Source: a virus
IMG/VR virus record: IMGVR_UViG_3300047552_000145
Coordinates: 1-64,000 of that record
Length of the DNA stretch: 64,000 nucleotides
Strand: one strand, 5' to 3'
The translations under genes and the position numbers were made by a program. Under the pieces are notes generated by a model. It saw nothing but the letters and a program-made list of their open reading frames with translations, did not search any database and was not told the origin of the DNA. Shown here piece by piece: positions 14,016-14,350 of this stretch (positions are counted from its first letter, which is position 1; each line of letters opens with the position of its first letter).

Positions 14016-14350
14016 TATTGCTGTAATTCCTTCAAAGCGAAGGACTTCTGGACGGGGGTTCGACTCCCCCCATCTCCACCAAAAGCAGAAGCACTAAAAG
14101 TACCCTTGAGTGGGTATACGATTTTAGTTCGTGGAATCGGGTAACGGAAAAAAGTGAACCCGAATGGCTACTAAACTGCTTTTGATGGGGATGCCATGGT
14201 TTCGACAGGGGTAGATAGTAGCGACGGCAGCACGTCAGGAGTAGACGTTAAAAGCAAATCAAACTAAATGCAAACGATGAAGTTTTCGCATTGGCAGCCT
14301 AAACGCTGACTAGGGTTTCGATGGGTTTCCTCGTAACAGAATAACCCATC
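14016..14350 (+). ncRNA. ssrA: circularly permuted (two-piece) tmRNA, tag ANDEVFALAA
   Basis: 3' acceptor half with T-arm GGGGGTTCGACTCCCCC and CATCTCC-A-CCA (to 14081) precedes the 5' half GGGGATG (14187-14193, G3:U pair); resume codon GCA14270, reading ANDEVFALAA-TAA(14302); ends approximate. Confidence 0.93.

Follow-up and report, generated by a model that had tools for sequence, protein, structure and literature searches.

Does an uncultured T4-like phage carry its own complete two-piece tmRNA and, if so, what would such an RNA do during infection? The locus that raises this question lies in a 64-kb window (the whole stretch of DNA analysed, 64,000 nt), which is part of an 81-kb IMG/VR entry of a T4-like myovirus, classed there as linear and not as a provirus. 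A first-pass annotation had read the locus as a circularly permuted two-piece tmRNA gene with the tag ANDEVFALAA, and dedicated searches arrive at the same gene and the same tag. ARAGORN reports a permuted tmRNA (tmRNA*) at 13989-14393, and the locus matches the full Rfam model beta_tmRNA (RF01850, positions 1-331) at 157.2 bits (E 1.6e-48, cut-off 84) and positions 1-213 of tmRNA_permuted (RF04321) at 143.6 bits against a cut-off of 47, where Rfam membership was judged by the curated gathering thresholds over the whole model. The gene is a circularly permuted two-piece tmRNA of the betaproteobacterial type. That standard pipelines would miss or miscall it, as had also been supposed, does not hold, since ARAGORN and Rfam both detect the gene at default thresholds. 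At least three phage records in GenBank hold such beta-type genes and yet carry no feature for them, so that routine phage annotation under-reports the type.

Position and parts of the gene

The gene lies inside the phage genome and not in the host flank of a provirus. T4-like genes stand on either side of it, and the phage context includes T4-like gp32, gp59, gp2 and baseplate genes. In DNA run X3, contigs covering 13300-14209 and 14223-14565 join parts of the tmRNA gene to its flanks with 0 differences, and in DNA run X7, which is independent of X3, a single contig (14192-16400) joins a part of the gene to its flank. Genes on both sides and independent bridging contigs thus uphold the earlier claim that the tmRNA is phage-encoded. 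The phage sequence is present in freshwater metagenomes, as indicated by a sequencing-run search, and the closest cultured phages are Melnitz and the pelagimyophages, with 38% (gp6) and 50% (gp32) identity. At the corresponding locus of contig G155 the tmRNA gene is 100% identical over its 335 nt, and contigs G156 (146.6 kb, 90% complete) and G157 carry tmRNA genes 84-97% identical within the same gene block. No tRNA genes were found in the window or in the other 17 kb of the record, and no ORF of at least 60 aa lies between 13994 and 14368.

Table 1 Features of the tmRNA gene and of the block downstream of it, in window coordinates.
Feature	Position	Strand	Basis or remark
Sigma-70-like promoter (consensus match)	TTGACT 13981-13986, 17-nt spacer, TATAAT 14004-14009	+	11/12 matches
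Acceptor piece, ~65 nt	14017..14081	+	Sequence, ARAGORN, Rfam, 98-gene alignment
Helix 2, 5' strands	14019-14023, 14044-14050	+	Acceptor piece
Local hairpin	14028-14033 with 14039-14044	+	RNAfold prediction; 14/98 genes
T-arm	GGGGG 14054-14058, loop TTCGACT 14059-14065, CCCCC 14066-14070	+	Sequence
Acceptor 3' strand, discriminator, encoded CCA	CATCTCC 14071-14077, A14078, CCA 14079-14081	+	Sequence
Intervening sequence (IVS), 105 nt, putatively removed	14082..14186	+	
IVS-end helix	AAAGCAG 14082-14088 with CUGCUUU 14176-14182	+	MFE and centroid folds
UGAU leader before expected RNase P cut	14183-14186	+	
Coding piece	14187..14350	+	Sequence, ARAGORN, Rfam, alignment, fold
Acceptor 5' strand GGGGAUG	14187-14193	+	Downstream of acceptor 3' strand (permuted order)
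Helix 2, 3' strands	14206-14212, 14228-14232	+	Coding piece
Tag frame GCA AAC GAT GAA GTT TTC GCA TTG GCA GCC TAA	14270-14302	+	ANDEVFALAA*
3' hairpin	14320-14327 with 14343-14350	+	Coding piece
orf92, small helical protein, conserved, virus-only	14930..15208	+	After the tmRNA gene in 10/11 related contigs examined
Cell-wall hydrolase PF07486	15262..15780	+	78.2 bits; endolysin PHROGs; conserved-block member
ClpP homologue, 186 aa	15777..16337	+	PF00574, 98.1 bits (cut-off 20.2)

Inspection of the sequence reveals the full set of parts expected of such a gene (Table 1). The promoter of its own that had been claimed for it was recovered as a sigma-70-type consensus match, which overlaps the 3' end of an upstream 2OG-Fe(II) oxygenase ORF (stop 13994), aligns with the promoter included in RF01850 (positions 1-50 of the model) and leads to a predicted transcript start at ~14016-14017. 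The acceptor stem pairs at 7 of 7 positions and holds the alanine determinant as G14189:U14075, the G3:U70 pair, just as it had first been read. Proximal helix 2 joins ACUUCUG (14044-14050) to CAGGGGU (14206-14212) through 7 pairs, 2 of them U-G, and distal helix 2, in its supported register, joins UGCUG (14019-14023) to CAGCA (14228-14232). Beyond a 4x4 internal loop (ACCA/UGAU), the IVS-end helix continues the acceptor stem. The cellular model has a terminator hairpin (RF01850 positions 307-328) to which nothing matched here, and no terminator-like site was found on the + strand between 13700 and 14700. With this hairpin absent, the coding piece lacks a defined 3' end, and the transcript may read through into orf167, for which Pfam and PHROG returned no family.

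Conservation of structure and tag

To assess the fold, a structural alignment was built from 98 unique related genes that had been pre-selected for acceptor-stem and T-arm features, and helix 2 played no role in their selection. Over these genes 90.8% of cells are paired compared with 72.4% after shuffling, a value that 0 of 500 shuffles reached, and a slid-partner control gave 42-51%. Both helices between the pieces covary, the proximal one being 99.0% and the distal one 98.6% paired, with compensatory changes in 12/12 pairs and thereby in all 5 pairs of distal helix UGCUG/CAGCA. The first-pass annotation had paired the helix 2 strands across the two pieces in both parts. Its proximal pairing stands, whereas its distal pairing (TTGCTGT/ACGGCAG) lies 3 nt off register and was rejected, with 62.1% of cells paired versus 61.2% in shuffled sequences and 85.4% after a slide of +3. 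A further hairpin in the PK1 region (CGUC 14233-14236 with GACG 14244-14247) fits the RF01850 model, but only 57% of its cells are paired over the 98 genes, a figure that may reflect an alignment problem.

The pairing figures for the acceptor stem and the T-arm are partly a matter of construction, because the sequences were chosen for those features; with that reading, G3:U is found in 98/98 genes, three acceptor-stem pairs carry compensatory changes and the T-arm is 100% paired. The search for disabling mutations (G3:U loss, a broken acceptor stem or a tag frameshift) likewise found none in these 98 genes, which had been pre-selected for an intact stem. The IVS-end helix is 89-90% paired with compensatory changes in 7/7 pairs, and its covariation would fit processing of a precursor. 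The precursor fold itself has a z-score of -3.49, and 0 of 100 shuffles fold equally well. Among the 108 loci that pass a stricter motif filter, the IVS ranges from 13 to 237 nt in length.

Tags ten residues long were compared from viral and small-MAG contigs (92 in all), and the positions scored were those that the search pattern had left free. Position 6 is F or Y in 92/92, positions 9 and 10 are Ala in 92/92 while using 4 and 3 codons, respectively, and position 8 is Leu in 81/92 with 5 codons. This pattern of constant residues and varied codons indicates a tag that is read as protein and held under purifying selection.

Proposed route of action and competing explanations

We consider it probable that a lytic freshwater T4-like phage here carries an ssrA gene that looks functional and is of the betaproteobacterial two-piece type. 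The sequence data show the gene with its structure, its covariation, the selection on its tag and its phage setting, and from these we infer transcription, processing, charging, tagging and a benefit to the phage. Host RNA polymerase would make one precursor from the sigma-70-like promoter, in the order acceptor half (~14017-14081, with encoded CCA), 105-nt IVS and coding half (14187-~14350), and this precursor would fold into a tRNA-like rod composed of the acceptor stem, the 4x4 loop and the IVS-end helix. Host RNase P would then cleave ahead of G14187, and 3'-processing enzymes of the host would trim back to CCA14081, leaving two pieces joined to each other by helix 2 and by the acceptor stem of 7 bp. 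Charging by host AlaRS would go through G3:U70, and SmpB with host EF-Tu would bring the RNA to ribosomes that have stalled on broken messages, of which a T4-like infection is expected to produce many. A search of four related phage records (G000, which is the source record, G155, G156 and G157) detected no SmpB, so that the SmpB needed would be that of the host. Translation would resume at GCA 14270, appending ANDEVFALAA, and the ALAA end would direct the product to ClpXP-type proteolysis, perhaps with the phage ClpP homologue. No ClpX-type AAA module above cut-off was found in the same four records, and this scheme presupposes that the RNA is compatible with SmpB, AlaRS and ClpX of the host. 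Ribosomes would in this way stay available, and amino acids would be returned to phage production.

Metatranscriptome runs X19 and X20 consist of assembled contigs in which RNA ends are not visible. Over the tmRNA region they supply pieces of 38-69 nt that show 1-6 differences and may derive from other tmRNAs. One X19 contig leaves the tmRNA sequence directly after 14081, and the sequence that follows is presumably sequencing adapter. Contigs of X19 also match stretches of the hydrolase and ClpP genes with at least 99% identity; an RNA library can hold DNA, so these contigs are no proof of transcription.

The ClpP homologue lies 1.4 kb downstream of the tmRNA gene on the same strand. Its motifs GQIASAG, SHQ and QDVW align to GQAASMG, IHQ and RDRY of chain 9pn7_A, and we take them to contain the catalytic Ser, His and Asp. 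Judged from these motifs, the phage homologue keeps an intact Ser-His-Asp triad. The arrangement around the tmRNA gene is repeated in G155, G156, G157 and seven further viral contigs, and the linkage of tmRNA and ClpP represents conserved backbone synteny within one phage group; it is absent in other tmRNA-bearing contigs, including the 100%-complete G158. This freshwater T4-like group thus has a conserved block that pairs a tagging RNA with a protease subunit, a pairing that is testable. Between the two, orf92 has no Pfam or PHROG family, its Atlas clusters hold virus-only hypothetical proteins, and its AlphaFold model is a helical hairpin (pLDDT 83.4) with no Foldseek match in the PDB at E <= 0.001. 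A T4 gp21-type prohead protease is encoded elsewhere in the record (G000 72378-72842).

A different selective reason for the same molecular mechanism would be counter-defence, in which the tmRNA offsets mRNA or tRNA cleavage by abortive-infection systems or toxins, or replaces host tmRNA lost in infection. The resemblance of the promoter to an early host-polymerase promoter and the presence of beta-type genes on at least 120 viral contigs, as counted with a single narrow pattern, would both fit a general benefit during infection, and upkeep of the hijacked translation machinery is proposed in PMC9004378. However, no defence or anti-defence gene was identified beside the tmRNA gene, and nothing in the present evidence separates counter-defence from plain ribosome rescue. 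We hold this reason for the gene to be rather unlikely.

It is far less probable that the RNA acts as a decoy, titrating host SmpB or AlaRS and thereby shutting down host trans-translation with no tagging of its own. Such a role has been proposed for mycobacteriophage DS6A, whose molecule with only a tRNA-like domain is reported to be a tmRNA inhibitor (PMC4131195, PMC11915505), and the lack of SmpB in the four related phage records would suit such a role. A decoy would need neither tag frame, helix 2 nor resume region, and the conservation of all three therefore counts against it: the tag frame is kept in full with its C-terminal residues conserved via synonymous codons over the 92 tags, and helix 2 and the resume region are conserved as well.

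We give equally little credence to a passenger gene, taken up from a host, of no use to the phage and subject to drift since then. tmRNA genes are frequent sites of integration and phages can pick them up (PMC9004378), and the loss of the cellular terminator could be seen as a sign of drift. Drift is opposed by the full identity in G155 and the 84-97% identity in G156 and G157, where the gene keeps its genomic place, by compensatory changes in place of decay, by purifying selection on the tag and by the absence of any integrase found in G000, G155, G156 and G157. Joining of host tmRNA DNA to phage by misassembly or mis-binning has next to no probability: conserved tmRNA cores do attract chimeric joins, and many contigs from other organisms break off at 14046-14051 and 14081-14085, but the X3 and X7 contigs run across the junctions and the ten further viral contigs repeat the arrangement.

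Relatives, published cases and the host question

Phage-encoded tmRNAs are catalogued in PMC9004378 and PMC11915505, and the two-piece kind is a published class, with 53 permuted forms in PMC9004378; the ssrA gene of the window is an ordinary further case of it. As one more uncultured example, it carries small weight on its own. Published parallels, described in PMC9004378, are Methylophilales phage Melnitz and the pelagimyophages Mosig and HTVC008M, which are likewise aquatic T4-like myophages with a complete two-piece tmRNA and an early promoter, and for which no integrase and no smpB is reported there. The Melnitz ssrA is assigned to the alphaproteobacterial lineage and described with a glutamine riboswitch at its 3' end (PMC9004378), in contrast to the beta-type gene of the window, where the Rfam search found no riboswitch or further Rfam family. 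The neighbours differ too, being orf92, the cell-wall hydrolase and ClpP here versus a transcription coactivator, thyX and csgGF there. One-piece tmRNAs with proteolysis tags, in standard unpermuted gene order unlike the present one, are described for mycobacteriophages (Bxz1 group), Bacillus phage G and Streptomyces phages in PMC4131195 and PMC9004378.

Permuted genes of the beta type were also called by ARAGORN (tmRNA*) in Pseudomonas phages PA_L9, SM1 and PaMx31, Synechococcus phage BUCT-ZZ01 and Ralstonia phage RsoM2USA. Their RF01850 scores, 101, 94.5 and 92 bits, lie above the cut-off and far below the 157 of the window. Their tags are longer or different (ANDTSFDVRLAA, ANDETFSMALAA), and the phages differ in type (siphovirus, kyanovirus, jumbo phage) and in host. 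SM1 is listed as 'Permuted' in Table S1 of PMC9004378.

Comparison with cells places the gene close to the betaproteobacterial tmRNA of RF01850, with which it shares the acceptor half in first position, the encoded CCA and the break points. Shared with cellular gene L139 are the IVS ends (CCA...AAAAG at the start and ...ACTGCTTTTGAT directly before GGGG), the UGAU leader and the spacing from TATAAT to the gene, and shared with the cellular beta type in general are the two-part helix 2, the resume context UAAAUGCA, a tag that follows the pattern ANDExFAxAA and the loop of the 3' hairpin. Unlike the cellular type, the gene is borne by a lytic T4-like phage in whose genome no smpB was found, it has no terminator hairpin, and its IVS measures 105 nt versus ~24 in the RF01850 model and 30 in L139. 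Identity to the nearest cellular coding pieces is ~75-77%. Sharkady and Williams 2004 is said to be the 'third lineage' paper on the betaproteobacterial two-piece tmRNA.

In a careful tree of 100 rows, whose bootstrap is not fully settled, the window gene and all six sampled cellular two-piece genes fall into one clade with support 100/99. An independent permutation event, as the first-pass annotation had suggested, finds no support in these results, because the whole beta model is matched and the gene order, break points, IVS ends and clade are common to the cellular genes. Two of the three major beta-type clades (42 and 31 of the 100 rows) were seen here on viral and small MAG contigs only. 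Cellular beta-type genes are rare and patchy, being present in 3/151 genomes sampled in the order and in 4/61 in one family. Closest among the cellular genes are those of four low-GC genomes of former Betaproteobacteria, each the only tmRNA in its genome, and these four genes branch inside the phage group of the window, G156 and G157 (supports 84/83 and 85/61). A quick tree had placed cellular genes in three places; the constraint of a single cellular clade was not rejected (AU p 0.746) and even raised the likelihood of the tree, so the three-place reading was dropped.

A wider reading would make phages the main reservoir and vehicle of the beta-type two-piece tmRNA, with the native one-piece ssrA of at least one bacterial lineage replaced by a phage gene and, in the phage group of the window, with the RNA and adjacent ClpP forming a phage-run tag-and-degrade cassette. 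We regard this combination as improbable. If the phage-to-cell direction at which the tree hints were true, the origin story of the betaproteobacterial two-piece lineage would change.

That the host is a betaproteobacterium, as had been proposed from the tmRNA type, is plausible. The position of the nearest cellular relatives in former Betaproteobacteria speaks for such a host. Speaking against it are the Pseudomonas phage gene L004 in the window's own clade, the beta-type gene of the Synechococcus phage (L002) and the alpha-type gene of the OM43 phage Melnitz, the last as given in PMC9004378. Beta-type genes in Pseudomonas and Synechococcus phages and an alpha-type gene in Melnitz make tmRNA type a weak host marker, and with a related gene in a Ralstonia phage as well it is a poor predictor of host. 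Literature searches found nothing on two-piece tmRNA in Polynucleobacter and, among the matches listed for Rhodocyclales and Dechloromonas, nothing on tmRNA. A genome scan for the exact tag returned 4 matches, none of them close kin: one Burkholderiaceae MAG in which a one-piece gene bears this tag, and three small MAG contigs that carry permuted genes.

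The tmRNA gene and its genome

The window carries a structurally intact tmRNA gene that is under selection, with a conserved degron-coding frame and a strong sigma-70-like consensus site upstream, in a lytic-type phage genome. The gene lies in a 373-nt gap, free of ORFs of at least 60 aa, that separates a 2OG-Fe(II) oxygenase ORF (stop at 13994) from the ORF beginning at 14368. The first-pass annotation had read a permuted two-piece tmRNA here and had named ARAGORN and Rfam searches as checks. ARAGORN calls a permuted tmRNA at 13989-14393 with the tag ANDEVFALAA* and no other tRNA-like gene in the 64-kb window. 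The Rfam model beta_tmRNA (RF01850) matches over its whole length at 13967-14368 (157.2 bits against a cut-off of 84; E 1.6e-48), the merged model tmRNA_permuted (RF04321) matches at 14019-14302 (143.6 bits against 47), and no further Rfam family exceeds threshold in the 64 kb. The observation is confirmed and its interpretation partly supported; on re-reading the sequence, the coordinates and claims for the parts of the tmRNA hold, apart from the register of the distal helix. The acceptor strands pair at 7/7 positions, with the G3:U70 pair formed by G14189 and U14075. The gene lacks the cellular terminator and no plus-strand terminator-like site lies downstream, so that read-through into the following genes is possible. 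A second sigma-70-like site with identical hexamers (TTGACT, 17 nt, TATAAT; 11/12) is located at 14521-14549 within orf167.

Features of the tmRNA gene and the genes downstream
Feature	Position	Strand	Remarks
Promoter-like site	TTGACT 13981-13986, 17 nt, TATAAT 14004-14009	+	11/12 sigma-70 consensus positions
Helix 2, two parts	14044-14050 with 14206-14212; 14019-14023 with 14228-14232	+	
T-arm	14054-14070	+	read from sequence
Acceptor 3' strand CATCTCC	14071-14077	+	read from sequence
Discriminator A, then CCA	14078, then 14079-14081	+	read from sequence
Acceptor 5' strand GGGGATG	14187-14193	+	read from sequence
Tag frame	14270-14302	+	encodes ANDEVFALAA*
3' hairpin	14320-14327 with 14343-14350	+	
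orf167	14368-14871		no family found; first gene after tmRNA
orf92	14930-15208		
Cell-wall hydrolase	15262-15780		PF07486
ClpP homologue	15777-16337		PF00574, 98.1 bits

The virus record, of which the window makes up the first 64 kb, spans 81,266 bp, is classed as linear, and has a CheckV completeness of 51% (IMG/VR). GC content is 36-45%. PHROG matches mark the virus as a T4-like myovirus, with genes for gp32 SSB, the gp59 helicase loader and the gp2 end protector, baseplate hub and wedge proteins, the tail tube and tail fibres, PhoH, a 2OG-Fe(II) oxygenase and halogenase-like proteins. Among cultured phages, Methylophilales phage Melnitz (tblastn identity 38% for gp6 and 50% for gp32) and the Pelagibacter phages Mosig and HTVC008M come nearest, with cyanomyoviruses next. 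Contigs from two independent DNA sequencing runs, one covering 13300-14209 and 14223-14565 with 0 differences and the other 14192-16400, connect stretches of the tmRNA gene with the adjacent genes, which establishes the gene as phage DNA rather than an assembly artefact. Sampled words of the 3.1-kb region 13300-16400 were found in 20 public runs from 11 studies, two of which runs may be the source sample; 18 runs hold at least half of the words. All organism-labelled runs are freshwater or aquatic metagenomes, and one run is unlabelled. Between the baseplate and tail-fibre genes lies a 2,444-aa ORF (40360-47694) matching phrog_358, a function-unknown family, at 1447.6 bits.

Comparative support for the fold and the tag

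A scan of IMG/VR with one narrow pattern (GGTTTCGACAGGG, a 45-75-nt gap, then ANDE codons) returned at least 120 viral contigs. A motif filter comprising the T-arm, an acceptor stem of at least 6/7 pairs with G3:U, and a downstream TTCGA was passed by 114 of 137 loci examined, all 114 with 7/7 acceptor pairs and 107 with an encoded CCA; 17 of the 120 listed IMG/VR loci fail it, several through short stored flanks. The alignment comprises 98 unique genes whose intervening sequence does not exceed 120 nt: 87 from IMG/VR contigs, 6 from cells, 2 from cultured phages, 2 from MAG contigs and that of the window. When scored against the Rfam-derived structure, 90.8% of cells are paired versus 72.4% after shuffling (0/500 shuffles as high), and sliding the partners lowers pairing to 42-51%. 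The helices between the two pieces, which played no part in choosing the sequences, reach 99.0% and 98.6% pairing and show compensatory changes in 12/12 pairs. G3:U is present in 98/98 genes, a figure partly fixed by sequence selection. The distal pairing first proposed, TTGCTGT/ACGGCAG, proved to be 3 nt off register: it pairs at 62.1% versus 61.2% when shuffled, and pairing rises to 85.4% with a slide of +3. The ends of the intervening sequence also form a helix (14082-14088 with 14176-14182; 89-90% paired, compensatory changes in 7/7 pairs), which together with the acceptor stem makes a long rod broken by a 4x4 loop (ACCA/UGAU). The rod is present in both MFE and centroid structures (RNAfold, z = -3.49).

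In viral and small-MAG contigs, 92 tags of ten residues, whose positions 1-4 are set by the search pattern and uninformative, have F or Y at position 6 in 92/92 and Ala at positions 9 and 10 in 92/92, written with 4 and 3 codons, respectively. Leu occupies position 8 in 81/92, with 5 codons. Judged from these tags, the tag is selected as a peptide. The exact tag ANDEVFALAA also occurs on a one-piece tmRNA (L127/L132) of the Burkholderiaceae MAG G003; that is to say, tag identity does not follow gene form.

Origin of the permutation and host range

Two-piece tmRNA genes are known from phages, and the window gene is a further member of this kind. PMC9004378 describes the two-piece ssrA of Melnitz and reports that, of 133 unique phage tmRNA genes, ARAGORN scores 53 as permuted, 50 of these from marine or aquatic phages; its table includes Pseudomonas phage SM1, Stenotrophomonas, Bordetella, Citrobacter and Caulobacter phages, cyanomyoviruses and pelagimyophages, among others. 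PMC11915505 counts 79 unique bacteriophage tmRNA sequences and builds RF04321, and earlier one-piece phage tmRNAs are listed in PMC4131195. RF01850 further matches the cultured phages BUCT-ZZ01 (ON615601.1; 94.5 bits), RsoM2USA (MG752970.1; 92 bits) and PA_L9 (PP869205.1; 101 bits), whose GenBank records carry no annotated feature over the beta-type permuted tmRNA. Worth keeping from the present analysis are the size of the viral beta-type pool (at least 120 contigs from one narrow pattern), two clades confined in this sample to viral and small-MAG contigs, a weakly supported nesting of one cellular lineage, and a conserved tmRNA-orf92-hydrolase-ClpP block.

The suggestion that the permutation arose independently in this phage is not borne out, given the full-length match to the beta model, the features common to a cellular two-piece gene (L139), and a shared, well-supported clade. 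The window and L139 have the same intervening-sequence ends (CCACCAAAAG ... ACTGCTTTTGAT|GGGGA), 3' hairpin loop and distance between TATAAT and the first helix. A careful maximum-likelihood tree of 100 unique genes, with the very long-branched row L133 left out and bootstrap not fully settled, places the window inside a 23-row set (support 100/99) that contains all six sampled cellular two-piece genes, 15 IMG/VR genes and PA_L9. Within it, the window and the genes of two related viral records (L053 of G157 and L075 of G156) cluster with four low-GC cellular genes at supports of 84/83 and 85/61, but the node joining the window itself has 55/0. One cellular lineage may thus be nested among the tmRNA genes of this phage group, a placement that is weakly supported. 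Two large, well-supported clades of 42 rows (98/98) and 31 rows (93/90) comprise genes from viral contigs together with one from a cultured Synechococcus phage and one from a small MAG contig; no cellular member was found among the 212 genomes sampled. Permuted tmRNAs on small contigs (L125, L126, L128, L133, L135) binned into Rubritalea and Flavobacteria MAGs (G001, G002, G004) are probably mis-binned phage DNA; G002 holds three such genes on three contigs.

The first-pass annotation had also proposed a betaproteobacterial host. In an even sample, centred on G003, of the GTDB order holding the former Betaproteobacteria, 3 of 151 genomes pass the RF01850 cut-off, the unpublished genome G030 being among the 148 below it. 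In the family of one two-piece genome (G069), 4 of 61 pass (G069, G222, G223, G241; 160-169 bits, surrounding GC 36-45%). These four have no one-piece tmRNA over the RF00023 cut-off, which makes the two-piece gene their sole ssrA. They are the nearest cellular relatives of the window gene (identities of ~75-77% for the coding and 85% for the acceptor piece); the viral L075 is much nearer (86% and 97%). This kinship lends modest support to a host in their lineage. Strong counter-examples weigh against reading host from tmRNA type, as beta-type genes occur in PA_L9 (Pseudomonas), BUCT-ZZ01 (Synechococcus elongatus) and RsoM2USA (Ralstonia), and Melnitz, whose host is a former betaproteobacterium, carries an alpha-type gene according to PMC9004378. 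On balance, we lean slightly towards a host in the former Betaproteobacteria.

Proposed pathway and the downstream block

The processing, charging and tagging steps of two-piece tmRNAs are established knowledge and form the basis of the proposed mechanism. By analogy, a single precursor transcript would be cut by RNase P before G14187 and trimmed at its 3' end to the CCA ending at 14081, with the pieces held together via the acceptor stem and helix 2. Host AlaRS would charge the phage tmRNA, host SmpB and EF-Tu would deliver it, and ANDEVFALAA would be added as the tag, directing the product to ClpXP-type degradation, in which the phage ClpP may take part. In an RNA library (X19), contigs carry what we take to be adapter sequence directly after 14081 and directly before 14896, the latter 34 nt upstream of orf92. 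These junctions hint at defined fragment ends, though contigs are no proof of RNA ends, and the piece at 14081 may derive from a different tmRNA. No SmpB, no ClpX-type AAA module over cut-off and no integrase were found in the record or in three related viral records (G155, G156, 90% complete, and G157).

The ClpP homologue has Ser, His and Asp motifs that line up with their counterparts in solved ClpP. A PF00574 match is present in 13 of 43 further viral contigs of at least 30 kb with a beta-type tmRNA (3/5 and 10/38), many of them fragments. Gene surroundings were compared in 11 contigs, the window and ten of the thirteen, all chosen for having ClpP, such that the counts are not frequencies. 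The tmRNA is succeeded by orf92 and the hydrolase in 10 of the 11 (window counted); ClpP immediately follows the hydrolase in 7 and lies no more than 2.3 kb downstream in 8, and three contigs have a more distant ClpP (38-42% identity) 6.5-8 kb away on the opposite side. The block runs on into gp59 and gp32, which argues that tmRNA-ClpP adjacency reflects conserved backbone synteny within a single phage group, not repeated independent association. The tmRNA occurs without ClpP in two other viral contigs, G158 (170 kb, 100% complete) and G159. The orf92 protein has an invariant N-terminus (MSNMTPFEIRLELLKMA...), occurs in virus-only clusters and is predicted to form a helical hairpin; it matches no family or fold.

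G155 shares the tmRNA at 100% identity over 335 nt and the downstream proteins at 95-100%, but its upstream genes differ, indicating a genome mosaic. The upstream run in the window (8589-13994) encodes two radical SAM proteins (8589-10031, 11851-13347), a halogenase-like protein (10661-11851), an unassigned 208-aa ORF and the 2OG-Fe(II) oxygenase (13344-13994); upstream of the tmRNA in G155, only the first radical SAM protein was matched (62% identical) and the rest of the run was not found. The run may represent a swappable cassette of auxiliary or peptide-modification genes. The T4-like phage also encodes a gp21-type prohead protease beyond the window (72378-72842 of the record), at a separate place from the ClpP homologue. 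Metagenomes hold more than 6,000 proteins related to the window ClpP at E <= 1e-10.
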